A stretch of 14,521 bases of DNA, from IMG/VR virus record IMGVR_UViG_2563366855_000007, positions 1-14,521 of that record. One strand, given 5' to 3'. Below, piece by piece: positions 966 through 14,521 of the stretch (positions are counted from its first letter, which is position 1; each line of letters starts with the position of its first letter). A program made the position numbers and the translations under genes. Under the pieces are notes generated by a model. It had not been told where the DNA came from and did no database searches. It saw only the letters and a list, made by a program, of their open reading frames with translations. This stretch comes from a virus (lineage: Duplodnaviria > Heunggongvirae > Uroviricota > Caudoviricetes).

Positions 966-1535
966 TCAGCCACGACTGCAGCCAAAGTTGCGCTCATCGG
1001 TGCAGTGAGCTTTGGTATGCTCCTTCGCCAGATAGTCAGCACGTTCCAGCACTTGCTGAAAGCCGGTGTCATCATTACGCGCCAGCCACACCGCCGGCCA
1101 GGCCGGAAAATGCACCAGCGTGGCATGGCATCCGGCATCCACCCCCAGGGCACTGCACCAGGCCTGTTCAATCATTCCGGCCAGTGATCCCGGAGCGCGG
1201 TAATCACCGGCACGACACCAGGTATCCCGGTTGACCAGCAGCATCAGATGATAGTGTTTTTTACCTTTGCACTCCCCAAACTCCCGGGCCCAGACGTAAT
1301 GCAGAGTGGTGGGATGCACGCGTTTACCTTCCCGATGCTTACGTTTCTGGTAAGCGTCGATTCGGGCTTTCAGGGCATTGATGAAGCGGGATATCACAGC
1401 TGCGTCCGTTGCTGCCGGTACATCCGGGAAACGCAGGTCAACCCGCAATGCCGTCAGGCGGGGATGAACATTCAGTGCGTGCCGCACTGTCTCACGAATA
1501 CGTTGCTGCCAGAAGGGGTTGTATTTGTAGGTCAT
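966..1535 (-). CDS. YfjJ/YagK-like (inovirus Gp2 family) protein
   Basis: ATG at 1533-1535 with GGAGAT SD 6 nt upstream (the track start at 1571 is a GTG without RBS). N-terminal YKYNPFWQQRI and RVDLRFP motifs recalled from the YagK/YfjJ family of E. coli cryptic prophage islands. Confidence 0.65.
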   Translation of the reverse strand: MTYKYNPFWQQRIRETVRHALNVHPRLTALRVDLRFPDVPAATDAAVISRFINALKARIDAYQKRKHREGKRVHPTTLHYVWAREFGECKGKKHYHLMLLVNRDTWCRAGDYRAPGSLAGMIEQAWCSALGVDAGCHATLVHFPAWPAVWLARNDDTGFQQVLERADYLAKEHTKAHCTDERNFGCSRG

Positions 1536-1667
1536 GGTTAAATCTCCGTATGGTTCATACGGAATAGCCACGTCGTAAAAAATGCGCAGAGTCCCTGAAG
1601 TGACCTCCGGCAGGGCACTGTCTCAGGCACTCTGTGATAACCCGAACGGTCGTCTCCGGACTGACGG

Positions 1668-1696
1668 TTGAATTTTCAGCGTTGTTTTTTTAATGT
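1668..1696 (+). promoter_or_regulatory. Sigma70-like promoter for the small zinc-ribbon gene
   Basis: TTGAAT (1668-1673), 17-nt spacer, TAATGT (1691-1696); about 40 nt upstream of ATG 1735. Confidence 0.4.
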
Positions 1697-1734
1697 AAAA
1701 AACCGGTTACGGGTAAGGCTGTGAGGAGGGAGTG

Positions 1735-1935
1735 ATGGTGATACGCAAAAAGAAGTGCAGGGACTGTGGAAACGCGATTACTCATAATACAGTGTGTTGC
1801 CCGTATTGTGGTTCTGTCGACCCCTTCGGCTATTACCGGAATACAGACCGTATCGTTACCATACTGCTGGCACTGATTATTGTGGTCCTGCTGACTACTG
1901 TCAGCGTCAGTGTGTATATACTGTGTAGCTGGTGA
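1735..1935 (+). CDS. Small zinc-ribbon membrane protein (66 aa)
   Basis: ATG 1735 with GAGGAGGG SD at 1723-1730. N-terminal C-x2-C ... C-x2-C zinc ribbon (CRDCGN...CPYCGS) followed by one hydrophobic helix (IVTILLALIIVVLLTTVSVSVYIL). Confidence 0.55.
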   Translation: MVIRKKKCRDCGNAITHNTVCCPYCGSVDPFGYYRNTDRIVTILLALIIVVLLTTVSVSVYILCSW

Positions 1936-2265
1936 GATAACGGTTCATGTATCCCCTGAGCTGACAGTGTACCGGGTATATTAAGCGTAACCGACAGGTT
2001 CTCCTTCATACCATATTAAATTTTTCCAGGTATTGCCGCTGCCTTATTTCGTCCCATACAGGAAAACTCGTCTGGGTTTCTGACAAATACGCGAAACTCA
2101 CAGCCCCTCAATATCAACCACACGCCGTAAGCCGGTAATACCTGATCAGACATGAGATAAATGAAGGGGGATCCGTGAGATAAATAACGAATTGGAGTGG
2201 GTTAACATGGGTTCTGGTGAACAGAACTGAAATTCTTTTCCGCTATACGATAGATAAGTCGGGCA

Positions 2266-2295
2266 TTGAAATCATCCTTCCTGGCAACTTAGAAT
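2266..2295 (+). promoter_or_regulatory. Sigma70-like promoter upstream of the 53-aa ORF
   Basis: TTGAAA (2266-2271), 18-nt spacer, TAGAAT (2290-2295). Confidence 0.35.
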
Positions 2296-2338
2296 CGAGT
2301 TTGCTGAAACATGACCCGCAACAAAAAGGATGATTCCA

Positions 2339-2500
2339 ATGACTACTCAAAACAATAAGCATGATAGCCTGGATTACTCAGAAAAGCCCAAAAGCAAGCA
2401 CATCGTGACGTTCGAGCGCGATTCCGGTAGAAAAGGAGAATCGTCTTCCTCTGCCAATAAAACCACTATGCCGGCAGCCCCTGCCCCAGGGAAAAAATAA
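2339..2500 (+). CDS. Hypothetical small hydrophilic protein (53 aa; below the ORF-track size cutoff)
   Basis: ATG 2339 with AAGGA 8 nt upstream, TAA at 2498-2500, candidate promoter upstream. Product MTTQNNKHDSLDYSEKPKSKHIVTFERDSGRKGESSSSANKTTMPAAPAPGKK is low-complexity; an in-frame alternative ATG lies at 2330. Confidence 0.25.
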   Translation: MTTQNNKHDSLDYSEKPKSKHIVTFERDSGRKGESSSSANKTTMPAAPAPGKK

Positions 2501-2503
2501 ACA

Positions 2504-3136
2504 TCATTCATCGTTCGTTGCACGAACGCGCCTGATCTCCACTCTGGCAATCTGATCTGCTGGAATATAGGTTGCCAGAGCTCCCCAGTACTTATCAACC
2601 ACGCCTTTATACTCTTCCCATTCGTTACTGCCTGAAGGGCTGCTGTGCGTGACGTAAAGAACCATATCGCCTTTATTCCCCTGGGTAAACGGACCGTTAG
2701 GCCACTCTTCAAAGTTCCCTGGCAGCCGTGACATCATACCGGAACCATCGCGAAGAATCACTCTGACCTCGGTAACGCTGAAGCCTGTTTGATCAAACAT
2801 TGCCTGCCATGCTGAGCTGGTATCGTCAGACCATGAAATATCATTATTCCACAGTAATCTGTACATCCATTTGCGACCGTACCTGCGCCACCACGCACCG
2901 CATGTAACGGCACACAGAAGTGCTGGTGGTGTTGCCAGCCAGGCATTCAGACCTGCCCACATAACAGCCTGGTAAGCCATCATTGCTGTCAGGCCAAAAA
3001 TCAGCGAAGAAAAAGTCACCTCAATGGGCTTGTGGTGATCCTTCAGTCCCACATTCGCAATAAAATACCCAATATAGCCACTGGTCAGGGTCACCAGTGT
3101 TGCCCATGGCAGATTTAACAACGAAACGTCAAACAT
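2504..3136 (-). CDS. Membrane protein: three predicted N-terminal TM helices plus about 125-aa soluble C-terminal domain; function unknown
   Basis: ATG at 3134-3136 with GGGAGA SD (alternative ATG at 3151 has poor spacing; track start 3214 is TTG). Hydrophobic segments LPWATLVTLTSGYIGYFIANV, VTFSSLIFGLTAMMAYQAVMWA, WLATPPALLCAVTCGAWW. Confidence 0.6.
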   Translation of the reverse strand: MFDVSLLNLPWATLVTLTSGYIGYFIANVGLKDHHKPIEVTFSSLIFGLTAMMAYQAVMWAGLNAWLATPPALLCAVTCGAWWRRYGRKWMYRLLWNNDISWSDDTSSAWQAMFDQTGFSVTEVRVILRDGSGMMSRLPGNFEEWPNGPFTQGNKGDMVLYVTHSSPSGSNEWEEYKGVVDKYWGALATYIPADQIARVEIRRVRATNDE

Positions 3137-3173
3137 ATTTTCTCCCTGCATCCTGAATACTAAAGAGAGAGCA

Positions 3174-3209
3174 TAAAAAAAGCACGGTAAGGGGTCTACC
3201 GTGCTTTTA
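3174..3209 (-). terminator. Rho-independent terminator ending the Mor operon (possibly bidirectional)
   Basis: Perfect 10-bp stem (3180-3189 / 3197-3206) with 7-nt loop. On the minus strand it is followed by a run of six U; on the plus strand by a shorter T-run (tttt). Confidence 0.7.
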
Positions 3210-3250
3210 TACAATAAGGAGATTTTTGAAAGGACTTTAACAAGCAGGAA

Positions 3251-3649
3251 TTATCTGGATTTGTTAACGTCTTTCGTCTCCTCTGGCAGATCTTCATCAA
3301 ACAACCTGCCCTGCATCCGATCCAGTTCTTCTTTTCTGACCCGCTTAACCACGCTGTAGACCCACTGAAGCGAAACACCAAACTTGCGGGCCAGTTCGTG
3401 GTGGTTGCGTCCGTTAAACTCCCTGAAGATTTCCCGGTCGCGCTGACTGACCTTCCATACCATGCCCATCGGGAAATAAACGTTTTGCCCGCCCCAGACC
3501 TGCATCATTCGGTTCGCGACGGCCTGACCAATCTGGTCGGCAATTGCGGGCTCAATATCAATAATCTCGCGAACGGTCTCAGAGGTATGCTGTGCCAGCT
3601 CCACCAGGAGTTCCGGCCCTTTACTTCGAAACTGATTCAGGTCGCTCAT
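3251..3649 (-). CDS. mor: Mor-family transcriptional activator (Mu middle operon regulator homolog)
   Basis: ATG 3647-3649 with GGGAG SD. Motifs GGQNVYFP ... RDREIFREFNGRN ... LARKFGVSLQWVYSVVKR match the Mor/C family pattern recalled from Mu Mor. Confidence 0.85.
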   Translation of the reverse strand: MSDLNQFRSKGPELLVELAQHTSETVREIIDIEPAIADQIGQAVANRMMQVWGGQNVYFPMGMVWKVSQRDREIFREFNGRNHHELARKFGVSLQWVYSVVKRVRKEELDRMQGRLFDEDLPEETKDVNKSR

Positions 3650-4073
3650 GTTTGACTCCCGCAGCTCTGCGCTGCCACTTCTTCAGTTTCTCAATAACAC
3701 TGCTTGCCTGTTCAGTACTGAGCCAGCGCAGGGCGCTGATGCCCGTTTCCCGCTTGATCCACCGCGCTAATGCATTTTCTGAACGGTCACGAACAATGCC
3801 GGCAGCAGCCATTTCAAGCCATAGCGCACGGATTTTCCTGGACTGCGGATGGTTATCCAGCGGTAAACCGGAGCTGGCTTTTCCGGCAGGCTTAACGCGA
3901 AAGCCTTTCCTTTTCATGGATTCCAGCACGCAGTTTAGTTGTGTGGTATCCATTCCTTTGGTTGAGGCTTTACCGGTCAGCCCCTGTAACATCTGGCGGT
4001 AGGTGTCTTCATCCATACCCAGTTCATTACGGGCAATATGAATGAGCTGGATAAGACGTTGTTTAGTCATCAT
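3621..4073 (-). CDS. gemA: GemA-like protein (Mu gp16 family)
   Basis: ATG 4071-4073 with AAGGAG SD; 3' end overlaps the mor start by 29 nt. N-terminal RLIQLIHIARNELGMDEDTYRQMLQGLTGKAS resembles the gp16/GemA family. Confidence 0.78.
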   Translation of the reverse strand: MMTKQRLIQLIHIARNELGMDEDTYRQMLQGLTGKASTKGMDTTQLNCVLESMKRKGFRVKPAGKASSGLPLDNHPQSRKIRALWLEMAAAGIVRDRSENALARWIKRETGISALRWLSTEQASSVIEKLKKWQRRAAGVKHERPESVSK

Positions 4074-4278
4074 CGTTGCTCCTTTTACCTGCGCCACCGA
4101 TATAATCGACATATAAAGGAAGCGCCACAGGCCAGCACAGGAACATCACCGACCAGCTAATCCAGTAGCCGGCACCACTGTAACGTGAATAAAACCCTGA
4201 ACGGCGGTGCAGTTCAGCAGTACACCAACCGACAAAACAATACCAGAACAGGGCACATACAACAGATTCAGCCGTCAT
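4063..4278 (-). CDS. Small two-TM membrane protein (71 aa)
   Basis: ATG 4276-4278 with G-rich SD; overlaps the upstream ORF stop by 11 nt and the gemA start by 11 nt (coupled). The hydrophobic sequence MTAESVVCALFWYCFVGW ... WISWSVMFLCWPVALPLYV supports the two-TM call. Confidence 0.45.
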   Translation of the reverse strand: MTAESVVCALFWYCFVGWCTAELHRRSGFYSRYSGAGYWISWSVMFLCWPVALPLYVDYIGGAGKRSNDDD

Positions 4279-4498
4279 TCTGAATATCCCCCCAACTGAT
4301 ATGAATATTACGGGCAGCAATGACAGGGTCGTTATTCCACCATGCACCTGACATGTATTTTTCAACCTGTTCGCGTCCGGCAATAACACCAATTGTGATC
4401 CCCGGCCTGACGTTCTTAAAAAAGGCGCGGGCAAAAAGGTATCTGGCAGATATTCGGCAGGCTTTTAATTTCCGGCTGTTACCTGATAGCGTAATCAT
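4268..4498 (-). CDS. Hypothetical protein (76 aa)
   Basis: ATG 4496-4498 with GGAGG SD; ATGA stop/start overlap with the upstream gene. Confidence 0.45.
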   Translation of the reverse strand: MITLSGNSRKLKACRISARYLFARAFFKNVRPGITIGVIAGREQVEKYMSGAWWNNDPVIAARNIHISWGDIQNDG

Positions 4499-5178
4499 CT
4501 GGCCTCCAGTTTCTGTTGTTCCTGCCCACTGACCGGGCGGTGCAGTCTGACGTTCTGCCCTTCAAGAAACCCCGCATAGCGCGAGGCGTCGCCATTGCGG
4601 CTTCTTCCCGGTTTACGCGCCCTGGTGGTTTGCGTCTGCGGGTATTTATGTTCCAGCCACTGCTGCATCAGTTCACGTTCGTCATCGGTCAGGGCGAAGG
4701 ACTGTATTTCACTGATAACGGCCAGCACCCAGCCTTCAGCAAACTGGTCACCACGGCTGGTACGGGTGGCAGTTTTTATTCTTTTGTTCTGTGCGCTGAT
4801 ATATTGCTGACGCGCCTTTTTCAGCTGGCGGGCCAGCACTTCCCAGGTGTACGCAGCCAGTGCAGCCCGTTCCCGGTTGCCGTAGAACCCCACACCCGGA
4901 TATGTGCCGGGGTGAATGATGGAGTTAACACCAAATGCCTCGCGGATGATGTTCATCAGGCCCAGCATGTAGCGCGGTGGACGGAGGCTGCCTGTCGGCC
5001 AGTAGTGACTGATGGTTTCATCAATATCACTCATGGCGATGTCGGAATGTGTGATGCCGTGAACATCCATCAGTTTACGGGCACGGCGCAGTGCCAGAGC
5101 GGCCTCGTGAGGGTTGCCGGATGCGGCCAGCGCCAGCAACTTTTTCAGTTTCTCAATGTGTTTATCCTGGTCTGTCAT
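4495..5178 (-). CDS. DUF2786-like protein (227 aa)
   Basis: ATG 5176-5178 with GGAGAT SD; ATGA overlap with the upstream gene. N-terminal KLKKLLALAASGNPHEAALALRRARKLM resembles the DUF2786 signature (from memory). Confidence 0.6.
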   Translation of the reverse strand: MTDQDKHIEKLKKLLALAASGNPHEAALALRRARKLMDVHGITHSDIAMSDIDETISHYWPTGSLRPPRYMLGLMNIIREAFGVNSIIHPGTYPGVGFYGNRERAALAAYTWEVLARQLKKARQQYISAQNKRIKTATRTSRGDQFAEGWVLAVISEIQSFALTDDERELMQQWLEHKYPQTQTTRARKPGRSRNGDASRYAGFLEGQNVRLHRPVSGQEQQKLEAR

Positions 5179-5480
5179 TGTTCAGTATCTCCGGTGTACA
5201 TGACGCCCAGCCGTGCGGCAAGGCGTTCCAGTTTTTTCTGTTTGTGGAAGTCAATCAGCCGGTCCATTCCCTGAAGGCGCAGTTGCTCTGTCATGATTTC
5301 CACGTCTGCCAGCTCTGCCGCGAGGTCACTTTCGCTGCCCTGTCCGTTCAGATTGCGGGCAGCACTGGCCGCCAGTTCAGCGGCCTCTTCTGTCAGTTTC
5401 AGGGCCTGTGCGTCCGGCCCGAAACGCTGCAGGGCCAGACGGTAGAGGGCGGTGCGGGTGAGTATGGTGTTCCGTGTCAT
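5175..5480 (-). CDS. MazG-like nucleotide pyrophosphohydrolase family protein (101 aa)
   Basis: ATG 5478-5480. EEAAELA ... AAELADVEIM acidic helix pair is typical of the all-alpha MazG-like NTP-PPase fold. Confidence 0.55.
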   Translation of the reverse strand: MTRNTILTRTALYRLALQRFGPDAQALKLTEEAAELAASAARNLNGQGSESDLAAELADVEIMTEQLRLQGMDRLIDFHKQKKLERLAARLGVMYTGDTEQ

Positions 5481-5489
5481 GCCGCGCCC

Positions 5490-5762
5490 TCAGTGCTTCC
5501 GGCTGACGGTGATGTGCAGGCCGCCTTCTGCAGTGGTTTCCATCCGGTACGGCACCTCATGCTCTGCCGTGTGGGTGAGTGTGTTCACCAGTACCTGCAG
5601 GGCAGCCGCCTTTCCGTTGGTCGCCACAATGGCCTGAGCGGTCATGCTGATTAGCGCCGTCAGGACGTGCTTCACATCGGTGAGGTCGCGGCATTCACAC
5701 TCGTTGACATAGTGTTCAACAAGGGTTCGGGTGCGCTGTCGTGCTTCCTGTGGGGTAATCAT
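5490..5762 (-). CDS. Hypothetical protein (90 aa)
   Basis: ATG 5760-5762 with GGGAGGA SD; ATGA overlap with the upstream zinc-ribbon ORF. Confidence 0.5.
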   Translation of the reverse strand: MITPQEARQRTRTLVEHYVNECECRDLTDVKHVLTALISMTAQAIVATNGKAAALQVLVNTLTHTAEHEVPYRMETTAEGGLHITVSRKH

Positions 5763-5953
5763 TGCGAGTCCTCCCTGTCAGGGCGGGAGAATTCCATGAC
5801 GGGCACGTCTGCCGAAAAATGCTGGCTGCAGTACGGGCAGACCAGGGTGACGCGTACCGCAGGGATGTGGTATTTACCGGACATCACGGCGATGGCGCTG
5901 TGAAAACGCAGGGCTGTTATATCCCTCTCGCACTGAATACATTTAAATATCAT
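5759..5953 (-). CDS. Small zinc-ribbon protein (64 aa)
   Basis: ATG 5951-5953 with GAGGAGA SD 8 nt upstream. C-x2-C (CIQC) ... C-x2-C (CPYC) arrangement. Confidence 0.5.
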   Translation of the reverse strand: MIFKCIQCERDITALRFHSAIAVMSGKYHIPAVRVTLVCPYCSQHFSADVPVMEFSRPDREDSQ

Positions 5954-6050
5954 GATTTAATTCTCCTCTGTTTCCGGCGTGCAGAAGCCCGCGGCGCTGA
6001 CGTCGGAATAAAAAAGAAAATGTTTTTATTAAATAATTAACGTGGTGTGT

Positions 6051-6581
6051 TTACTGCACATCCTGCTCAAAAGGAATTATTGAAAAATCCTCAATGTCGC
6101 TTTTAATGGAAATACCGGGAATATTTTTCACGGCCTCTTTTTCATTCAGGATAGCGTCTTTATTTATTTCCTCTTTTACACGAATAAAGCGCTCAAGCCC
6201 CAGACGTCTCAGTAATTCAATAACATTATCCGCCCCACGGATACTGACTGATGGCGGACGGTTTCGCCACTGCACCTCGCCGGTGGTGAGGTTAGCGAAC
6301 TTCACCTTCCCGTTGCCGGTCAGTTCATCACGGTGTGCCTCACACCATGTCTGAATACCGGACTGCAGTTCGGCCATGCGTTTTTTCAGGCTCTCGGTGA
6401 GCGGGGCATAACGTGCGGTGATATCGCCAATGGCGTCATTCATTTCTGTTTCAGCCCTGACCAGTTCACGTTGTGCGTCACCGAGTAGTCTGATTCCCTC
6501 AATGACCTCTTCACGTGTCCCCGGCACCCAGAGTGCTGCTGCGGCCTTGATACGTTTTGCACCTTTTGTACTTTTTGCCAT
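6051..6581 (-). CDS. gam: Gam (Mu-type host-nuclease inhibitor, DNA-end binding) homolog
   Basis: ATG 6579-6581 with GGAGAAA SD. MAK..KRIK.AAA..VP ... ETEMNDAI ... WCEA.RDELT..GKVK.ANL.TG.V.WR.RPPSVSIRG ... GL.RF.R.K.EINK.AIL ... SIIPFEQ matches Mu Gam as recalled, near full length. Confidence 0.9.
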   Translation of the reverse strand: MAKSTKGAKRIKAAAALWVPGTREEVIEGIRLLGDAQRELVRAETEMNDAIGDITARYAPLTESLKKRMAELQSGIQTWCEAHRDELTGNGKVKFANLTTGEVQWRNRPPSVSIRGADNVIELLRRLGLERFIRVKEEINKDAILNEKEAVKNIPGISIKSDIEDFSIIPFEQDVQ

Positions 6582-6608
6582 TTTTTATGATTTCTCCAGT
6601 TGTGCTGA

Positions 6609-6878
6609 TTACCACAAAGATTCCGGCCACACGACGCGACAGCCGTGCAGTTCGAAAACGCCCTGACGGAAATATCCCCTGTGGTCATGTCCGGTATACA
6701 GATAACAGGCCTTTCCCTGCTCAAGCATGCGCATGCAATGCGCACTCCGGGAAACGCGGATGACAGGTTTGTTACCCCTGATGGTGATGCTTTGTACATC
6801 CGTGTTCGTCGCCTTAAGCGCCATAATGGCTGACTGCACTTTGCTGATTTGCTGGTTGATACCTGTGGTGGATTTCAT
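6609..6878 (-). CDS. Hypothetical protein (89 aa) in the position occupied by kil in Mu
   Basis: ATG 6876-6878 with AAAGGGG SD, 3 nt downstream of the B-like stop. No recognisable motif; the kil analogy is positional only. Confidence 0.45.
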   Translation of the reverse strand: MKSTTGINQQISKVQSAIMALKATNTDVQSITIRGNKPVIRVSRSAHCMRMLEQGKACYLYTGHDHRGYFRQGVFELHGCRVVWPESLW

Positions 6879-6880
6879 TA

Positions 6881-8047
6881 TTAAACCCCTTTGACAACGT
6901 CAGCGTTGACCTGTGGAACCCCGATTTCAGCGGCCAGATTCATGGCGGCTATTACCAGGTTACTGACGGCCAGCGGATACAGCAGGCTGACCATATTTTT
7001 ACGGTGACTTCCCGGATTGCTCAGGCGGGCACGTATGGCATCCACTGCACCGGCGTCCATAATGTCCGTCAGCTGTTTACCGGCCCGTTGCAGTTTGAAC
7101 GTCAGAAATTCTTCAAGGTTATTGTCCAGAGGCAGAAGTTCGACCACCTCACAGCGCTGAACGACTTCACGGACTTCCATATTGCGTTCAGACAGTTTTG
7201 TCGCCAGTTCCGGCTGGCCAATCAGCACGATGGACAGCAGTTTTTTGAAACCGGACTCCAGCTCAAAAAAGCGTTTGAGGTGTTTCAGTGTCGGAATGGG
7301 CAGACTGTGGGCCTCCTCAATCACCAGAACGTGGCTGAACCCCGCCTGGCTGCTGTCTTTCAGGACGCGATGCAACTGGCGAAAACGGGCGTCCTGACTG
7401 CGTCTGATGCTTTCCAGTGGTGCGATGGTACTGATAATGGCTTCGGCAATAGCTGCTGCCTTCAGGGTTTTCCCTTTCACATCGTTGTCTTCCATAGCGA
7501 TGATGTATGGCTCGATAACAATTACCGGCGCATTCTCGCGGTTGATACGTTCAGTCAGGTCGCGGCGCAGCGTGGATTTACCCGCACCGGACTCACCGAT
7601 GACGGCCATAAACCCACCATGACGGGCTGTCTGGTACAGCGCCTCACGCACGTAGCGAATGTCCGGGGTGGTGAACACATCATCAGAACCCTGCATGGCT
7701 TCGTCGGCGAACGGGTCACGGAAAAGACCAAACGCTTTTTTGGTTGCTGGAAATAACACCTGTTTTTTGAGTAACATATTCTCTTCCTCACTGAGGCTCG
7801 TTTTATCTGTGGTACCCGCTGTACGGGGCGTGGCCGCGCCCTGTACAGCATCAAAACTCTTCGTTGTATCAATCCCCTGACTTTCCAGCCAGGACGCAAG
7901 ACGCCGGCGCACTTCTCCGGGGCTGGTGCGGGGCCACGCGTTATGATTCACAATCTGGGCCAGCGTGGCCTCAGAAACATCGACAGCTCTCGCCACCACC
8001 GCCTGTGGAATACGGGCCTCTTTCAGTTGCTGCTTCAGTACCAGCAT
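6881..8047 (-). CDS. Transposition ATPase, MuB-like (AAA+ with N-terminal HTH)
   Basis: ATG 8045-8047 with GAGGAGGG SD that spans the A-like stop (track start 8086 is GTG with no SD). Walker A GESGAGKS, Walker B-like VLVIEEAH, N-terminal HTH (VSEATLAQIVN). Confidence 0.8.
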   Translation of the reverse strand: MLVLKQQLKEARIPQAVVARAVDVSEATLAQIVNHNAWPRTSPGEVRRRLASWLESQGIDTTKSFDAVQGAATPRTAGTTDKTSLSEEENMLLKKQVLFPATKKAFGLFRDPFADEAMQGSDDVFTTPDIRYVREALYQTARHGGFMAVIGESGAGKSTLRRDLTERINRENAPVIVIEPYIIAMEDNDVKGKTLKAAAIAEAIISTIAPLESIRRSQDARFRQLHRVLKDSSQAGFSHVLVIEEAHSLPIPTLKHLKRFFELESGFKKLLSIVLIGQPELATKLSERNMEVREVVQRCEVVELLPLDNNLEEFLTFKLQRAGKQLTDIMDAGAVDAIRARLSNPGSHRKNMVSLLYPLAVSNLVIAAMNLAAEIGVPQVNADVVKGV

Positions 8048-8057
8048 GTTTCCCTCC

Positions 8058-9827
8058 TCAGTTGCCGTTAACAATGCTGATAACACTGCTGCGGGCCGGT
8101 GTGGTCAGCGTGGCCATGACTTCATCCAGTGCGGCTTCCGGTACGCCGTCCGGGTACTGTGCCGTTAACTGGCGGTAATGTTCCGGCGTCCAGGTAAGGC
8201 CGTCGGCGCTGAACTTATCGCGCAGGGCTTTCGCGGCCTCCACATGAGTCATGGGACGTTGTTCAGTGCGCGGCCCGCGTACGTCAGAGGCCTGACCACG
8301 CTTCGGCATATAGGCCGGAAGTGTGGTGTCGTCGATATGTTTATACGGGTCAAGCCGCCCGCCGAACGGCAGCGCCTTCGCCTTGCGTGCGGCGGCTGCA
8401 TCTGCGGCGTTGTCTGTACCGGTAACCAGCGCTTCGGTTTCTTTTGCCGCCATCTGTGCCGGGGTTTCCGGCAGGGCTTTGTAACTTTCGCCAAATACCG
8501 CCGCGCCTTCAGCAAAGCCAAACTCGTTCTTTCTGACCTCTTCGACCAGGAAGAACGTCTCGTGGCCGTCCTCACCGGTCAGAACCACCTGTGCCACATC
8601 GCTGCGCCATGGGTTACGGGTAATCATCAGTTTTTCACCAACCAGTACGCCCGGTACCGTTGATACGTCAAATTCAGTGCCCCGGAACGAGACACGAAGT
8701 TTTGGCGTGACTTTGCGGAGTTCTGGTGCCGCCACAGCCAGTTCACGACATACCTCAACGGAAGGCGCTTTTTTCAGCTGCTCAGCAGTAATCTTCAGCC
8801 AGATATCCGTGCGGGTTTTACCGTGGCGGCTGTGAACAGCCGTGGCGTTAAAGTGGCTGCGCCATTTCGCGGCCAGCGCGTTGAGTTCTTCCAGACTGTG
8901 AACCGGCCGGAACTTCAGACCCGGCTCCAGCTTGCGTTCGATAATGTCACGCGCCTTTTCCACCTGTCCGGTGGCGCGGGCGTTATGCGGCTTGTGCGCT
9001 ATCAGGTCGATGCCCAGTGAGCGGCACATGTTTTTCGTCATACCCGCGGTGTTTGCCGAGCCGGGGTCGAGATAGAGTATTTTCGGCACGCCGTGCAGCA
9101 CGTCTGCGCCGCCACGCTCCTGCATGGCGTTGATAAGCACAGAACACAGGTTCTCACCTGATTCCGCGCCCGTCACATACTCAACGTAAATCCAGCCGCT
9201 GGCATGGTCGGTAATCTCGTAACTCCACACGCGGTCACTGGCGATACGGGCAAGGTTAGCGGGCTTGTTCTTGTAGAACTTCGCGCTGTCCATCACCTGC
9301 AGCCCTTTATGTCCATTGCTCAGGTAGTAAAGCGTGCAGAGTGAGGCGTCAATCTGCCAGACATGATTGGGATGCAGACTGGCCACTTCGGTATGTGGTG
9401 CAGGGGCATCCAGTTGTTCCGGGTGCAGGCCATAGTTACGCAGAGCACGGCTGATGGCATCTTCAGACAACGGGAAAAACTCACTGGTGGTTTCATCTGT
9501 TCTGCCTGCGGTGATAAAGCCGTTAGCCCGCAGGGTTTCCACTGCATCTGCGATGGAATAGAGACGCTTACCGTTCTTGCGGGTGGCCTCACGCAGTGTG
9601 GCAGATATCAGCGCGGCTTCGTCGCGGGTCAGGGCGCTGCGCCCGGCATCGGCGCGTTTTTTGCGTTTATCAGTCACAGATACCTCCTTCAGCCTGCGCA
9701 GCAGAGTGGCGCGGGACATGCCAAGTTCAGCACAGGCAGCGTCGTATACTGCGCCGCGTTTACCATGCCCCGCGTCACGTGCCGCGCGGGCGACATAAAC
9801 CAGTCGTTCAGTCAGGGCAGCATTCAT
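8058..9827 (-). CDS. DDE transposase, MuA-like (rve/integrase core; 589 aa)
   Basis: ATG 9825-9827 with GGAGG SD. Catalytic triad candidates D in HVWQIDAS, D in LYLDPGSANT, E in GQVEKARDIIERK; N-terminal HTH. Sits directly upstream of the AAA+ partner as in Mu A-B. Confidence 0.85.
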   Translation of the reverse strand: MNAALTERLVYVARAARDAGHGKRGAVYDAACAELGMSRATLLRRLKEVSVTDKRKKRADAGRSALTRDEAALISATLREATRKNGKRLYSIADAVETLRANGFITAGRTDETTSEFFPLSEDAISRALRNYGLHPEQLDAPAPHTEVASLHPNHVWQIDASLCTLYYLSNGHKGLQVMDSAKFYKNKPANLARIASDRVWSYEITDHASGWIYVEYVTGAESGENLCSVLINAMQERGGADVLHGVPKILYLDPGSANTAGMTKNMCRSLGIDLIAHKPHNARATGQVEKARDIIERKLEPGLKFRPVHSLEELNALAAKWRSHFNATAVHSRHGKTRTDIWLKITAEQLKKAPSVEVCRELAVAAPELRKVTPKLRVSFRGTEFDVSTVPGVLVGEKLMITRNPWRSDVAQVVLTGEDGHETFFLVEEVRKNEFGFAEGAAVFGESYKALPETPAQMAAKETEALVTGTDNAADAAAARKAKALPFGGRLDPYKHIDDTTLPAYMPKRGQASDVRGPRTEQRPMTHVEAAKALRDKFSADGLTWTPEHYRQLTAQYPDGVPEAALDEVMATLTTPARSSVISIVNGN

Positions 9828-9830
9828 TGG

Positions 9831-10742
9831 TTATGCCTCCAGCCCGTTAATCTGTGGCGTCGACTCAGTCAGCCATGAAGGCGCTGCATTGCCTGTTGGC
9901 TCGTCCGGCAGGTCAAATGTGGAGCGCAGGCTACGCGCTGTGCTTTCCAGTTGACAGACCAGGCCTGCCATGAAGTCTCTGGGGGTATCAATCATGTTTT
10001 CAGCACAATATGCGCACAGCGTCTCAAAAGCGCTGGACAGTCGGACGGCGATGGCAGATTCCGCCTCAACCGCTAATGCTGTTACTTCCGCCCGCAGCTT
10101 CTTAACCTCCTCATCAGGCTCAGGTGGCTGAATACGGGATTTCTTCTCCAGTCTGGTGGAGAGTGAGTCTATTTTTTCATTTTTGTCGGCGAGTACGCGC
10201 TGTTGTGCTGCGTTGGTTTCGCGCGCTTCGCGCAGGGCCTGACGCAATTCACGTACTGACATGCGATCAACATCGTCAAGCGTCAGTCCGGCAACTGTGC
10301 CACCGTCGGCCAGTTCAGCAAGGTCGTCGTCATCTTCAGCAACAAGTTCAAATAATTTTGCCTTACCTAAAAGCGACAACGTTGTCGCTTTTGGCTCTAG
10401 TTTTGGTGAAAGGTATTTCAAAGATGCTTTCATCATTCGTTGTGCTGCGCGCACATGCAGACCAAGTTGTTCTTCTACAATTCCAACAAAGTCCCCGTGA
10501 GGTTCATTTTCTTTGAGAATAATAAGTCGTTTACCTGCTTCCAGCATGGCCTCAGCGCTCTGTGCCATATAAAACCGAGCCTCATGAACTATGCGATCAC
10601 GCTCATAGGGCTGACCATCGCCAAACTGCTGCATGATCTCCATACGATGCTGTGTCATGGCGTTCAGACTGACATTGAGATCATCCGACAGCGGTACCTC
10701 GGCGTTCAGTTCAGTGTTAATCGGTGATTTGGTGCGTCCCAT
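9831..10742 (-). CDS. DUF3102-like protein (303 aa) with acidic linker and coiled-coil
   Basis: ATG 10740-10742 with AAGGAG SD; stop 3 nt before the A-like start. IVHEARFYMAQSAEAMLEAGKRLIILKENEPHGDFVGIVEEQLGLHVRAAQRMM resembles the DUF3102 core (from memory). Confidence 0.55.
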   Translation of the reverse strand: MGRTKSPINTELNAEVPLSDDLNVSLNAMTQHRMEIMQQFGDGQPYERDRIVHEARFYMAQSAEAMLEAGKRLIILKENEPHGDFVGIVEEQLGLHVRAAQRMMKASLKYLSPKLEPKATTLSLLGKAKLFELVAEDDDDLAELADGGTVAGLTLDDVDRMSVRELRQALREARETNAAQQRVLADKNEKIDSLSTRLEKKSRIQPPEPDEEVKKLRAEVTALAVEAESAIAVRLSSAFETLCAYCAENMIDTPRDFMAGLVCQLESTARSLRSTFDLPDEPTGNAAPSWLTESTPQINGLEA

Positions 10743-10752
10743 TTATTACTCC

Positions 10753-11061
10753 TTACAAACGACTACCTGAAATGACACGTTGGTTGATTTCGTTAATGCG
10801 ATCCTGTGCACGTGCCATCTCGTTACTGTGGGCCATAGCGATCTGCAGTAACTGGATGCCCGGCGCGAAACGCCCGTTTTCCAGTTTCAGGGCCAACCCT
10901 TCTTCAATGAGGGTGTTGAGTGCCCGGTTGATGTTTGCCGGTGACTCGTGCAGTGCTGCCGCCAGTTCACCGTTGGAAATACCGTTCAGGGCATGACCGC
11001 GCAGCGCTTTGAGTACCCGGAGGATGCGACTGCCGGAGCTTGAAACATTCGTCTTACTCAT
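10753..11061 (-). CDS. Winged-helix (IclR/MarR-like) DNA-binding regulator (102 aa)
   Basis: Second ATG (11059-11061) has AAGAGG SD at good spacing; the first ATG (11067) is 1 nt from the SD. ILRVLKAL ... GISNGELAAALHESPANINRALNTLIEEGL is a classic wHTH pattern. Confidence 0.55.
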   Translation of the reverse strand: MSKTNVSSSGSRILRVLKALRGHALNGISNGELAAALHESPANINRALNTLIEEGLALKLENGRFAPGIQLLQIAMAHSNEMARAQDRINEINQRVISGSRL

Positions 11062-11113
11062 CTGCATACCTCTTTTGCGATATGTGATAACCTTTTACAA
11101 AGACTCAAAATCT

Positions 11114-11302
11114 TCAGGCTGCCTGAGCTGTTGATTTCAGCCCCAACTTCACGGCGATTTCATGGGATTTACCGTAACGGGCTTTGGTCTGCCCATTGAG
11201 AACGCGGTATACCTCATTGCGGTTGTAGCCGTTTTCTTCTGCCCAGCGGGTGAAAGTGATCCCGCGCTGGCGGAAGAGAGCTTTGACTTGTTCTGCAGTC
11301 AT
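11114..11302 (-). CDS. ner: Ner/Nlp-like small DNA-binding regulator (62 aa)
   Basis: First gene after the early promoter; ATG 11300-11302 with AAGGAG SD. Pattern RQRGITFTRWAEENGY ... GKSHEIAVKLG parallels the Ner/Nlp fold; the assignment is by position and pattern. Confidence 0.55.
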   Translation of the reverse strand: MTAEQVKALFRQRGITFTRWAEENGYNRNEVYRVLNGQTKARYGKSHEIAVKLGLKSTAQAA

Positions 11303-11349
11303 CGTTGTCTCCTTTGTTGATGCAATGATGTTTGCCTTATGTGTGATAG

Positions 11350-11378
11350 ATTATGGTGCAGATTACCTCACCAGTCAA
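11350..11378 (-). promoter_or_regulatory. Early promoter (Pe-like) in the divergent repressor/ner switch region
   Basis: On the minus strand TTGACT (plus 11373-11378), 17-nt spacer, CATAAT (plus 11350-11355), about 45 nt upstream of the ner-like ATG. The spacer contains TGCAGATTACC and a nearby AGATTA repeat, candidate operator sites. Confidence 0.55.
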
Positions 11379-11402
11379 CTTAAAGAGTGCAGAAAAACTC
11401 AC

Positions 11403-11741
11403 ATGATCGGGTTACGTATTAAAGAAGAAAGAGAGCGTCTATCTCTTACACAGCAAGGGTTGGCTGATGCTATAGGTGTGGCAAAGAGAACTTTCATTGA
11501 TTGGGAAAAAGATCGCACTTCTCCTACTGCAGTGCAGTTATCTGCACTATCAGAAATCGGTGTAGATATTTTGTATGTAGTTACTGGGGTGCGGAGTCAG
11601 CCTGTTGTTGCACCTTATGTGTCACAAGAAAAGAAAGAGTTAATGGATGCATTCGACGAAATGAGCCCCGAACAACGGAGGGCAATTCTTGAGGTCGGCA
11701 AAGTCTTCATTCAACCCAAACCAAGCAAACTCGCAGGCTGA
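11403..11741 (+). CDS. XRE-family (Cro/CI-type HTH) repressor, divergent from the early operon
   Basis: ATG 11403 opens directly on the HTH (LSLTQQGLADAIGVAKRTFIDWEKDRTSPT); weak RBS. The track ORF from 11250 begins with GTG and would run through the early promoter. Confidence 0.65.
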   Translation: MIGLRIKEERERLSLTQQGLADAIGVAKRTFIDWEKDRTSPTAVQLSALSEIGVDILYVVTGVRSQPVVAPYVSQEKKELMDAFDEMSPEQRRAILEVGKVFIQPKPSKLAG

Positions 11742-11827
11742 TTTTGACCTGGACACAAAGGACAGGTGGTTGATCTGGATGCTTTCAGAAAACATCGCCA
11801 GTGACATAGTGGAAGTTGTTTGGTTTA

Positions 11828-11859
11828 CCGGAAAGCATTGTGCTTTCCGGTTTTGTTTC
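11828..11859 (+). terminator. Rho-independent terminator downstream of the repressor gene
   Basis: Perfect 10-bp stem CCGGAAAGCA / TGCTTTCCGG (11828-11837 / 11841-11850), 3-nt loop, then TTTTGTTTC. Confidence 0.75.
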
Positions 11860-12622
11860 AGAAGTTGCAGATTACCAGTTCACGGCGCGGCGTGGATTTC
11901 CCCGCCAGACTGTAGTTGATGTTCACTGTCTGTATGTTCAGTCCAGTGAACACCTCGCGCATCTGTGGGATATCGTTCACCGAAATTATCATTTTTCCTC
12001 TGATGCACCGGGCCAGCTCTGCCAGCCGCGAGTAGTTCCCTTCAGGAAAATCCACACCATAGCCTTCCGTACCCAGGTACGGTGGGTCGCAGTAGAACAG
12101 TGTGTGCGGACGATCATAACGCTCAATGCACTGTTGCCAGTCCATGTGTTCTATGACTGTTCTGGAAAGCCGCAGGTGTGCTGCTGACAGTTCTTCTTCA
12201 ATACGCAGCAGGTTGAAGCGTGGCGGGGATGTGGTGGAGGTACCGAAGCTGTGCTCTGCCACCTTGCCGCCAAACGCCTGCTTCTGAAGGTAGTAGAACC
12301 GTGCCGCACGCTGGATATCCGTCAGTGTTTCTTCCGGGGTGATCTGCAGCCATTTGTAGATCTGACGGCTGACCAGCGCCCATTTGAACTGGCGGACAAA
12401 TTCTTCCAGGTGATGCTTTACCACCCGGTACAGATTCACCAGTTCACCGTTGATATCATTGATGACTTCGATCTTGCCGGGTGTCTTAAGAAAATAGAGC
12501 GCTGCTGCCCCACAAAACGGCTCCACATAACATTCATGCGCCGGAAACAGCGGCAGGATGTGTTTTGCCAGGCGACGTTTGCCACCAATCCATGGAACGA
12601 TGGGTAATGTCTTCATTTTCAT
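11858..12622 (-). CDS. Dam-family (D12 class) DNA N6-adenine methyltransferase, orphan
   Basis: ATG 12620-12622. N-terminal PWIGGKRRL, motif I EPFCGAAALYF, catalytic DPPY, C-terminal RRELVICNF. No adjacent restriction endonuclease candidate. Confidence 0.88.
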   Translation of the reverse strand: MKMKTLPIVPWIGGKRRLAKHILPLFPAHECYVEPFCGAAALYFLKTPGKIEVINDINGELVNLYRVVKHHLEEFVRQFKWALVSRQIYKWLQITPEETLTDIQRAARFYYLQKQAFGGKVAEHSFGTSTTSPPRFNLLRIEEELSAAHLRLSRTVIEHMDWQQCIERYDRPHTLFYCDPPYLGTEGYGVDFPEGNYSRLAELARCIRGKMIISVNDIPQMREVFTGLNIQTVNINYSLAGKSTPRRELVICNF

Positions 12623-12663
12623 AATCTGTAAGCCTTTTACAATTATTAAAAATATGGCAGGCT

Positions 12664-12770
12664 AGTCTGGTCTCGCGAGACTGACTGAACCTCGGTCGGC
12701 TCACAGCCACTTCTGTGGGACGATGGCCAGCCCGGTGGGTCCGAAGCACCGGGCTGGTCGTTCTTTCATG
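12664..12770. promoter_or_regulatory. Structured non-coding region upstream of the Dam-like gene: 12-bp perfect palindrome plus GC-rich hairpin
   Basis: GTCTCGCGAGAC at 12670-12681 flanked by AGTC/GACT; 11-bp perfect stem CCAGCCCGGTG / CACCGGGCTGG (12727-12737 / 12747-12757) with 9-nt loop, followed on the plus strand by TCGTTCTTTC. Confidence 0.35.
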
Positions 12771-12813
12771 ATGCGGCAGGGATAGTGGGATTTCTGTTAA
12801 TGTGGTTTAGGGA

Positions 12814-13029
12814 TTATCCGGGGCGATTTTCTGACCTTATCCGGTCCAGGGCATAAGTAATACCTTCTGCAAAAACAGAAGTATCAAACTGCTTTTGTAT
12901 TCCCTGAAAATGAAAAGCGGCACGACAGACACTCAGTTCTCCGCGATGTAACCGGATAATATCTTCCAGAACATTGTTCACTGCTTCAGCACGGCGCTGA
13001 TGTTCTGTTAACGTTAATCGGGGATTCAT
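12814..13029 (-). CDS. Hypothetical protein (71 aa)
   Basis: ATG 13027-13029 with AAGGAG SD 6 nt upstream; no recognisable domain. Confidence 0.4.
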   Translation of the reverse strand: MNPRLTLTEHQRRAEAVNNVLEDIIRLHRGELSVCRAAFHFQGIQKQFDTSVFAEGITYALDRIRSENRPG

Positions 13030-13432
13030 GATGCACTCCTTAAATGATGATTTTTATGCACTCACCGGCAAAATATTCTGCCGATTACTGAACACGCATC
13101 CGGCACCTCAGGTTTTGATTTATTCTGGTTTTTTCGATATCCCGGACCAGGTTGATCACGACCAGAAAAAGTGCCGGTATTTTATTGATACGCTGATATG
13201 GCTTCGGGATAACAGCTATATTCGTTACTCTCAGTTGCTGGCTGTGGGAGCGGCTGATGTCGTCCTCACGGAAAAAACGCTCCGTCTGCTCAATGCCACG
13301 CCGACCCTTCTGCAGCCCCGGCCCGCACCATTTAAAGAGTCACTTCTGGATGCAGTAAAAACCGGTGAAAATGCAGTCATCGCTGAATGCGTATCCCGGA
13401 TTATGCGTTACGTGTTTAATGAACGTAAGTGA
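13028..13432 (+). CDS. Hypothetical protein (about 134 aa)
   Basis: ATG 13028 or 13031 with a weak GGGGA SD. The start overlaps the divergent 71-aa ORF start and the 3' end overlaps the P-loop gene by 25 nt, so it may not be real. Confidence 0.3.
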   Translation: MMHSLNDDFYALTGKIFCRLLNTHPAPQVLIYSGFFDIPDQVDHDQKKCRYFIDTLIWLRDNSYIRYSQLLAVGAADVVLTEKTLRLLNATPTLLQPRPAPFKESLLDAVKTGENAVIAECVSRIMRYVFNERK

Positions 13433-14151
13433 GGTTTATCCGCTGTCTGCATAATCCCGATAGCCAGTGCGAGGGGAAGTAATTCCGGGGAAACTCTTTC
13501 AAACAGCGACTCCCATTCTCCTCTCGCCATCACTCTGTCCAGCCCGCCCCCCAGTTGCATTTCAGCAATCTTCCTGATTTCCCGGAACAACGCCGCTTTG
13601 ATCTCTTCGTGCTCAGCTTTATTTTCCGGTGTCAGAATGTATTCGTCGAAGAACCGGGGAGGCTGGTTAACGGGGAGCGTGTTCACCGGGATGTGTTCCT
13701 GTTTCCCGTACTTCGGGGCAGAAAAACATTCTGTTGGCTGACCGGTGAGTTTACGTAGCTCCTTCATGAGCAGCTCCTGATCGTAAACTGTCATCAGTGC
13801 CGCAATGGTGGCATGCAGTGCATCGGGCAGTATCCAGGGTTGCCGGCCCGTGGGGCATATAACATCCAGCAGCTCATTCGTCCGACAGATACGCTCCTCG
13901 CCGTATGACAACAGGCCCTGTCCCGTGTATTCCTCCAGCTTGATCACTGTGCCACCCCGTGGCTTCTGCCAGGTCGTCAGATCATCGCCACTCATACGCC
14001 GCTCATCATCTACGTCTGCAGCATCGACAATGACGCTGCCCCCGAATTCCTGTTTCACCACTTCCTCTATCCGCGCCAATATGTAACTTTTACCGCTGCC
14101 CACAGGACCGGACACGGTGACAGTGATGACCGGATTCAGTGTCTGCGTCAT
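13408..14151 (-). CDS. P-loop NTPase, kinase-like (247 aa), function unknown
   Basis: ATG 14149-14151 with GAGGAGA SD 7 nt upstream. Walker A GPVGSGKS immediately after an N-terminal beta strand (VITVTVSG), as in small-molecule/nucleotide kinases. Confidence 0.65.
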   Translation of the reverse strand: MTQTLNPVITVTVSGPVGSGKSYILARIEEVVKQEFGGSVIVDAADVDDERRMSGDDLTTWQKPRGGTVIKLEEYTGQGLLSYGEERICRTNELLDVICPTGRQPWILPDALHATIAALMTVYDQELLMKELRKLTGQPTECFSAPKYGKQEHIPVNTLPVNQPPRFFDEYILTPENKAEHEEIKAALFREIRKIAEMQLGGGLDRVMARGEWESLFERVSPELLPLALAIGIMQTADKPHLRSLNT

Positions 14152-14281
14152 ATCGTATTCTCCTCTGTGAATAATTCATCGTTTATCCTGCACATCCCGT
14201 ATCCCCGGCTCTCTTAACGCGCTTTAAAATCCTTCGCGCCCTGTATTTGTGATGCTGTCTCCACCAGACAAGGAGACACAC

Positions 14282-14521
14282 ATGAAAAACCTGAAAAAAT
14301 TCATTCCCCCTGTTAAAAAACCTCGCCTCAGCGGCTGGCTGCTGACCTCAGTGCTGTTGCTGGGCACCATCGCTCTGGTCTCGCCACAGCAGTTGCCTGT
14401 TGTGATCTACAAGCTGGCACTCATCACGCTGGCAGCAGTGCTGGGTTACTGGCTTGACCGTTCGCTCTTCCCCAAAGCCCGTCCCGGTCAGTACCTGAAA
14501 CATGACGACAGGCTGATGGCT
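14282..14521 (+). CDS. Membrane protein, 3'-truncated at window end (at least 80 aa)
   Basis: ATG 14282 with AGGAGA SD 5 nt upstream; no stop before the window end. Basic N-terminus then two hydrophobic segments (LSGWLLTSVLLLGTIALV, VVIYKLALITLAAVLGYWL). Confidence 0.55.
   Translation, partial: MKNLKKFIPPVKKPRLSGWLLTSVLLLGTIALVSPQQLPVVIYKLALITLAAVLGYWLDRSLFPKARPGQYLKHDDRLMA

Follow-up and report, generated by a model that had tools for sequence, protein, structure and literature searches.

A winged-helix gene and a modular DUF3102-like gene precede the transposase gene in the early operon of a BcepMu-like Escherichia coli prophage

In phage Mu, the early gene ner (1099–1326) is followed directly by the transposase gene A (1328–3319), with nothing between them. 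In the stretch of DNA that we analyze here (14,521 nt in full, hereafter the window), two genes lie between a small HTH gene and the transposase gene, all on the minus strand: a winged-helix (wHTH) gene of 102 aa at 10753–11061 and a gene for a 303-aa DUF3102-like protein at 9831–10742. An earlier note on this DNA had read the gene order in Mu and the positions of the two intervening genes correctly, and had regarded the pair as an addition to the Mu layout that might either serve transposition or act on the host. Which phages carry this gene pair, what kinds of protein does it encode and does the evidence tie these proteins to transposition, to transcription or to the host?

We begin with the element itself. 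The window contains the early part of a transposable, BcepMu-like prophage of E. coli that starts at position 2143, an assignment that follows from its matches to bacterial genomes, the structure of its end and its closeness to two deposited phages. Bases 2143–14,521 match prophages of 84 complete E. coli genomes at more than 99% identity with differing flanks; the matches start at 2138–2143, and bases 1–2142 do not travel with the prophage in this comparison. The prophage end (2143–2185, plus strand) was located from the starts of these matches, from a repeat search and from a comparison with NZ_CP098187, in which the prophage is inserted into rfaH and has a flank different from the window's. 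The end begins with TG and contains, at 2152–2185, a pair of direct repeats, (A/G)TGAGATAAAT, that probably serve as binding sites of the transposase. It is the one prophage end within the window, the right end and the target duplication falling outside. Among deposited phages, Escherichia phage PhiKM (genus Bcepmuvirus) is the closest, with 93% overall DNA identity to the window and 100% over tnpA–tnpB; Klebsiella phage KP12 is next at 86%. Transposable prophages of the BcepMu/B3 type are common in E. coli. A search of the window with Rfam returned no RNA families.

B3/BcepMu-type phages form a separate group with a Tn552-related transposase (PMC5977238; PMC8705779), and the early operon of the window has the makeup of this group: an rve TnpA of ~590 aa, an ExeA-like TnpB, a gp16-family first gene opposite the repressor gene and a TG end. 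The marks of a Mu-type operon, an HTH_35 Ner and a MuA-type transposase, are absent from the window. The operon runs from the gp16-family HTH gene through the 102-aa winged-helix gene and the 303-aa DUF3102-like gene to TnpA (rve) and TnpB (AAA+). Divergent from it lies an XRE/CI-type repressor gene (11400–11741, plus strand; HTH_3, E = 1.6e-7), for which RefSeq gives a longer version with its start at 11283 (NZ_CP098187). The first gene of the operon encodes an HTH protein of 62 aa, a member of the BcepMu gp16 family (11114–11302, minus strand; TIGR04111, 97.4 bits against a cut-off of 34; phrog_925). The earlier note called this regulator ner-like, a description that holds for its position only: the gene is Ner/Cro-like by its place in the operon, while its product belongs to the gp16 family, falls below the threshold of the Ner-family model HTH_35 (17.9 bits against 25) and has no BLASTP similarity to Mu Ner. 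A candidate early promoter, TTGACT-17-CATAAT (11350–11378, minus strand), precedes the gp16-family gene; it comes from a consensus scan in which the number of sites found equals the chance expectation. Operator-like direct repeats lie nearby at 11356–11371 and 11387–11402, and a pattern scan of 9700–11900 found no minus-strand terminator-like sites.

The 589-aa product of the transposase gene tnpA (8058–9827, minus strand) is a DDE enzyme with an rve domain (35.8 bits against a cut-off of 32.6; phrog_310, E = 2e-147); it is of the Tn552-related kind found in BcepMu and B3 and is also IS481-like. BLASTP finds no similarity between this TnpA and MuA, and no Mu-transpos_C domain was found in the window. 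The tnpB gene (6881–8047, minus strand) follows directly 3′ of tnpA after a 10-nt gap and encodes a 388-aa ExeA-like AAA_22 ATPase, the analogue of MuB (AAA_22, E = 3.8e-20; phrog_296, E = 5.5e-93), which RefSeq names ‘ExeA family protein’. An 89-aa open reading frame and a Gam gene also lie downstream in the early region. Mu shares the logic of this operon, with its divergent repressor, small HTH first gene, DDE transposase and AAA+ partner, but differs in having no genes between ner and A.

The winged-helix reading frame extends over 10753–11067, and its second ATG, at 11061, is the likely start. An AGAGG box lies 7 nt upstream of it, all phage orthologues begin at the equivalent codon (MSK/MTE) and the RefSeq start call in a 99.6% identical prophage (NZ_CP098187) agrees. 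The winged-helix identity proposed in the earlier note is borne out by an HTH_IclR match over residues 14–59 (27.3 bits against a cut-off of 22) and by an end-to-end match to phrog_1368 (E = 9e-45), and the gene is the orthologue of B3 ORF14 and BcepMu gp12. IclR regulators of ~250 aa have a second, effector-binding domain, which is absent from this protein of only 102–104 aa. Because a length of 102 aa leaves no space for that domain, the protein consists of the wHTH on its own, followed by a C-terminal helix, and the label ‘IclR family’ in phage records covers the HTH alone. Comparisons with PDB sequences gave marginal MarR matches only, BLASTP found no similarity to MuA and the PADLOC models gave weak, HTH-level matches (CARF3--CARF_TM, E = 2.9e-5; AbiEi, E = 0.0036).

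Over its full length, the 303-aa protein matches phrog_1748 (E = 8e-140). As to its designation as DUF3102-like, homologues of ~90% identity carry PF11300 and the NCBI name DUF3102 and several distant relatives pass the threshold; the window's own protein scores 24.3 bits (E = 4.1e-5) against a gathering threshold of 24.4, short by 0.1. The acidic stretch that had been noticed in it, EDDDDLAELADGG, occupies residues 135–147. No NCBIfam model covers the protein, the PADLOC defense-system models do not match it and searches of PDB sequences, with the single sequence and with a 72-sequence profile, returned coiled-coil noise only.

The junctions between these genes are tight. Ten nucleotides separate the stop codon of the winged-helix gene, which an AAGGAG box overlaps, from the ATG of the DUF3102-like gene, and 3 nt separate the stop codon of the latter from the tnpA ATG (9827), where a GGAGG box lies inside the preceding gene. 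The coupling to the transposase gene that the earlier note had described thus stands in the sense of close packing with ribosome-binding-like boxes at the junctions. Other phages tolerate insertions within the pair or before tnpA: a 105-aa open reading frame lies between the DUF3102-like gene and tnpA in PhiKM, and gp11 lies between gp12 and gp10 in BcepMu. Consequently, strict translational coupling is not required.

The arrangement is already known, and the gene pair is a standard part of the BcepMu/B3-type early operon. B3, BcepMu, phiE255, PM105, JBD25, phiSHP3, PhiKM and KP12 all have the order wHTH, DUF3102, tnpA, tnpB. The four genes are ORF14, ORF13, ORF12 and ORF11 in B3, and gp12, gp10, gp9 and gp8 in BcepMu; the pair is gp42/gp41 in phiE255 (operon gp42–39), genes 14/13 in PM105, gp16/gp15 in JBD25 and orf18/orf17 in phiSHP3. 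Typical sizes in described phages are ~100 aa for the wHTH protein and ~305–325 aa for the DUF3102-like protein. The B3, BcepMu and phiE255 proteins are orthologous to those of the window and belong to the same PHROG families, with 39–56% identity for the 303-aa protein and 33–56% for the wHTH protein; compared with them, the window has its own allele variant at residues 81–131 of the 303-aa protein. PhiKM and KP12 share the pair, which their records describe as an IclR family regulator followed by a hypothetical protein; the window's DUF3102 protein has only 76% identity to that of PhiKM. Using tblastn, we found the four genes in the same order at nearly all of 80 genome loci with enough flanking sequence, a set that was retrieved with a 6-phage alignment and is biased to closer relatives. 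These loci come from Gamma- and Betaproteobacteria (Enterobacterales, Burkholderiales, Pseudomonas, Chromobacterium, Cellvibrio and others) and from one Spirochaetia MAG; their TnpA proteins have 49–96% tblastn identity to B3/BcepMu-type TnpA, and the median gaps are 12.5 nt from wHTH to DUF3102 and 3 nt from DUF3102 to tnpA.

Mu, whose transposase has no BLASTP similarity to the TnpA of the window, is an unlike comparison, and in the BcepMu/B3 lineage the pair is the norm; the two genes are not extra in the sense of the earlier note. That note had also allowed that the same arrangement might already be characterized, with functions, in a described phage. Described and annotated phages, as well as RefSeq genomes, do have the arrangement, which makes the feature itself already known, but these phage records assign no function to the DUF3102-like protein (published remarks elsewhere may exist) and label the wHTH protein as a generic transcriptional regulator at most. 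In phage Fc02, most open reading frames of the pE operon apart from A, B, gemA and mor are likewise unassigned, and the operon turns on within 10 min of induction (PMC9936078).

Both open reading frames are real genes and not chance readings. Among seven enterobacterial relatives, dN/dS is 0.02–0.2 throughout, and 0.02–0.04 in the winged-helix gene; the family of the 303-aa protein comprises 1524 clusters at 50% identity; and a proteomics study of ESBL E. coli lists a DUF3102 protein (QGA32870) with a neighboring HTH protein (QGA32871) and Gam (QGA32865) (PMC9927464). From their adjacent accession numbers, these proteins look like products of the same kind of E. coli prophage. The pair consists of conserved, expressed early genes of a known phage lineage that evolve under purifying selection.

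We now turn to the internal structure of the 303-aa protein, which is modular. Its N-terminal module (residues 1–162; 10257–10742, minus strand) is multi-helix and HTH-like, and its C-terminal module (residues 163–303; 9831–10256, minus strand), a long helical hairpin with a third helix, is set apart by the AF2 model and by a divergence that follows TnpA. Across 56 loci with complete gene sets, identity in the C half correlates with identity in TnpA (Spearman 0.71), with a partial rho of 0.63 when TnpB, the wHTH protein and the N half are controlled, whereas the partial correlation of the C half with TnpB is −0.13 when TnpA is controlled. The N and C halves are nearly uncorrelated with each other (rho = 0.21, or 0.05 after control for TnpA), and the N half follows the wHTH protein (0.47) and the gp16-family gene (0.43). 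Synonymous divergence among the seven enterobacterial relatives divides the operon at the same place: dS is saturated, at 1.1–2.9, in the wHTH gene and the N half, and is 0.42–0.62 in the C half, tnpA and tnpB. This contrast indicates that the wHTH gene and the N half form an older block that recombined into a younger backbone.

The lowest identity in every comparison falls at ~10350–10500 (residues ~81–131, the putative HTH), where nucleotide identity is 55–62%. The dip holds against PhiKM, despite 94–98% identity over the wHTH gene and the first 80 codons. As judged by these alignments, residues ~81–131 are a diversity and recombination hotspot.

Natural swaps over longer evolutionary distances fit the two-module picture. 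JBD25 gp15 shares the C module only (39% identity, E = 4e-17), and its adjoining Tn552-type TnpA is 57% identical to the window's. Conversely, gp15 of Burkholderia phage KS10 shares only the N-terminal DUF3102-type module (28% identity over 203 aa, E = 6e-9). Its gene has the same position, after a gp16-family HTH gene and directly upstream of the transposase gene, but the transposase is MuA-type with Mu-transpos_C, there is no wHTH gene and the C-terminal half of the protein is unrelated. In L088, a metagenomic locus, DUF3102 is fused to a Cys-rich extension in a protein of 537 aa, which is flanked by a true Ner (HTH_35, E = 9e-21) on one side and a phrog_310 transposase on the other. The comparisons at short and long distances suggest that the C module is tied to the Tn552-type transposase. 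However, the genes are adjacent and the recombination breakpoints lie inside the DUF3102-like gene, so that co-variation of the C half with TnpA could arise from linkage alone; the link to TnpA is consequently suggestive only.

In Mu and D108, the N-terminus of MuA co-varies with the repressor. We considered a simple form of the same idea, in which the N module would co-vary with the immunity region, and rejected it: the gp16-family proteins of BcepMu and locus L028 are 91% identical with N modules at 38%, and those of phiE255 and L028 are 35% identical with N modules at 74%.

An AF2 model of the 303-aa protein, computed from a 72-sequence alignment of representatives, is confident and all-helical (pLDDT 91.3, pTM 0.67). 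Short helices extend to residue 160 and are followed by helices at 163–204, 209–248 and 255–275 with pLDDT above 95. The comparison of the model with PDB structures gave no significant match. Below significance, the N-terminal domain weakly resembles HTH domains of the ParB/KorB/SopB/VirB type, the matches being to multi-helix HTH folds (Spo0J 4.4, SopB–DNA 4.3, VirB 4.1, StbA 4.1, P1 ParB 4.0 and KorB 3.9/3.8), and further weak matches are to sigma region 4 (4.6), the DeoR DNA-binding domain (4.2) and a MuA chain (3.9). Residues 84–110 can be read from the sequence as a helix, a G-containing turn and a helix, a partial fit to an HTH, and at the corresponding position the N module of JBD25 gp15, which is unrelated, matches HTH_28 below threshold. 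Together with the model, these resemblances hint that the 303-aa protein may bind DNA.

What, then, might the two proteins do? We tentatively propose, with a confidence somewhat short of even, that both are DNA-binding accessory factors of the transposition and replication module. The small protein, a stand-alone wHTH with a C-terminal helix, would probably work as a dimer. The HTH-like head at the N-terminus of the 303-aa protein would bind DNA through a putative recognition region at ~81–131 that has been exchanged between lineages, and its C-terminal helical hairpin or bundle would contact the Tn552-type transposase. Acting together, the pair could bring the transposase to a phage-specific site, or control its access. 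In Mu, the N-terminal domains of MuA do part of such targeting, and the winged-helix domain that binds the internal enhancer (MuA domain Iα) belongs to the transposase itself. The N-terminal winged helix of MuA is consequently a possible functional analogue of the separate DNA-binding proteins here. It counts against the proposal that Mu manages without a detectable homologue, as do, by the absence of tblastn matches, the D3112/DMS3-type phages, and that the insertions in PhiKM and BcepMu are tolerated. If the two proteins are accessory transpososome subunits, they would explain how the B3/BcepMu-type phages do without MuA's built-in DNA-binding domains. A more specific version, which we regard as fairly unlikely, makes the DUF3102-like protein a third subunit and a modular adaptor, its conserved C-terminal tail docking on TnpA and its swappable HTH head setting the DNA site, or the phage whose DNA the transposase would act on. 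The head would then be inherited together with the small wHTH protein, and exchange of the residue 81–131 cassette would shift specificity between near-identical phages, much as the N-terminus of the transposase differs between Mu and D108.

These proposals compete with a reading in which the two proteins only regulate transcription of the early-to-middle program, for example at the early promoter or at a second internal one, and have no direct role in transposition. The winged helix is the domain type of MarR/IclR-type regulators, several phage records label the wHTH protein as a transcriptional regulator and the pair lies just downstream of the lysis–lysogeny switch; a passage in PMC9936078 also cites a proposal of a possible extra B3 promoter between ORFs 15 and 16, upstream of the pair. 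Pure regulation leaves unexplained, however, why the C half tracks TnpA and neither TnpB nor the regulators, and why KS10 and L088, both of which lack the wHTH gene, encode a DUF3102-type protein immediately 5′ of their transposase gene. We consider it rather unlikely.

The variability of residues ~81–131, the most variable stretch of the module in every comparison, even against PhiKM, could instead reflect an arms race, with the 303-aa protein, alone or with the wHTH protein, acting in conflict with the host or with competing phages through superinfection exclusion, anti-defense or takeover. Other early-operon genes of the B3-like phage Fc02 do have exclusion activity (PMC9936078). Yet the variation resembles old alleles being exchanged under strong purifying selection (saturated dS, dN/dS of 0.06–0.2) more than it does positive selection, the gene is present at a fixed position in nearly every member of the lineage, unlike typical accessory morons, and the PADLOC result for the 303-aa protein is negative; a conflict role thus appears improbable, and the evidence speaks more for a connection with the transposase than for action on the host. 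Finally, the DUF3102-like protein might act after strand transfer, recruiting or remodeling the replisome and so passing the transposition product to the replication apparatus of the host; in transposable phages, transposition and replication have to be coupled. On a Firmicute plasmid, a canonical DUF3102 gene directly follows genes for a replication protein and an ATP-binding, loader-like protein. This is a single example of such a context, however, and neither sequence nor fold comparisons found similarity of the 303-aa protein to known replication factors, and to such a hand-over we give very little credence. Preferring, with the reserve stated above, accessory factors of transposition, we note that the feature as a sequence is ordinary, since annotations of many deposited phages, and of bacterial genomes in their thousands, include the pair, and that our observations leave the picture of the locus unchanged. 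What is new is the modular history of the 303-aa protein, the hotspot at residues 81–131, the module swaps with transposase type and a confident fold without a solved relative, which together make a testable hypothesis. Their value is as a pointer to two proteins that a large lineage of transposable phages encodes directly 5′ of its transposase gene; if the hypothesis is true, they could matter for mini-B3 and BcepMu transposon tools.

Some smaller observations concern the relatives of the pair. Fusion partners were considered as a clue to function and set aside: relatives of 430–545 aa have Cys-rich N-terminal extensions, to which Pfam and PHROG gave no match. Matches on plasmids were likewise discarded as a separate context: most of them come from copies of these prophages integrated into a plasmid, or from chromosomes wrongly recorded as plasmids. 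The enterobacterial branch lacks an extra conserved gene, of the B3 ORF15/BcepMu gp13 type, that in the Burkholderia/Pseudomonas branch lies between the gp16-family gene and the winged-helix gene.

Strict adjacency of the module's genes is dispensable, because an additional small reading frame interrupts the order winged-helix gene, DUF3102-like gene, tnpA and tnpB in two relatives. In Escherichia phage PhiKM, a 105-aa ORF (L004, 10844-11161) separates the DUF3102 gene from tnpA, and in BcepMu, gp11 (L003, 4056-4268) separates the winged-helix gene from the DUF3102 gene. Longer DUF3102 relatives (430-545 aa; P0196, P0219, P0244 and P0217) fuse the DUF3102 module to an N-terminal extension, which carries recurring Cys-rich motifs of the CxxC type and has no match in Pfam or PHROG. 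In the metagenomic locus L088, a Cys-rich/DUF3102 fusion (2105-3718) takes the place of the pair of winged-helix and DUF3102 genes and has a true Ner on one side and the transposase on the other.

Far outside Proteobacteria, the module is present three times in a single Spirochaetia MAG (contigs 1 and 4; L081-L083). The three copies have identical match statistics, which suggests that the module either transposed recently or belongs to an element that is contaminating or shared. The DUF3102 domain also occurs beyond transposition modules, as the Alicyclobacillus plasmid p1 demonstrates (L092, 2840-6092), where the gene for a canonical Firmicute DUF3102 protein of 300 aa comes directly after a replication gene and the gene for an ATP-binding protein, and precedes one for an ORF6C-domain protein.

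Within the window, the intergenic region between the repressor and early genes (11303-11402) contains operator-like direct repeats, GTGCAGATTACCTCAC (11356-11371) and GTGCAGAAAAACTCAC (11387-11402), with a spacing of 31 nt. These repeats overlap a promoter-like element on the minus strand, TTGACT-17-CATAAT. According to RefSeq, the repressor gene (11283-11741) starts at 11283 and encodes 152 aa, and its call overlaps the 5′ end of the gp16-family gene on the opposite strand by 20 nt. An alternative start, the ATG at 11400, would yield a 113-aa protein in which the HTH_3 domain is still complete, so that either start may be the true one.

The prophage end (2143-2185), whose first bases are TG at 2143, contains two direct repeats, ATGAGATAAAT (2152-2162) and GTGAGATAAAT (2175-2185). 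Across the whole window, this repeat has five matches with at most two mismatches versus 2.8 expected, which does not exceed the chance level; the two copies at the prophage end are probably transposase binding sites. Just past the repressor gene lies a D12-class Dam methyltransferase gene on the minus strand (11858-12622), and the strong plus-strand hairpin and T-run between the two genes (11827-11851) would suit a terminator of the repressor transcript.
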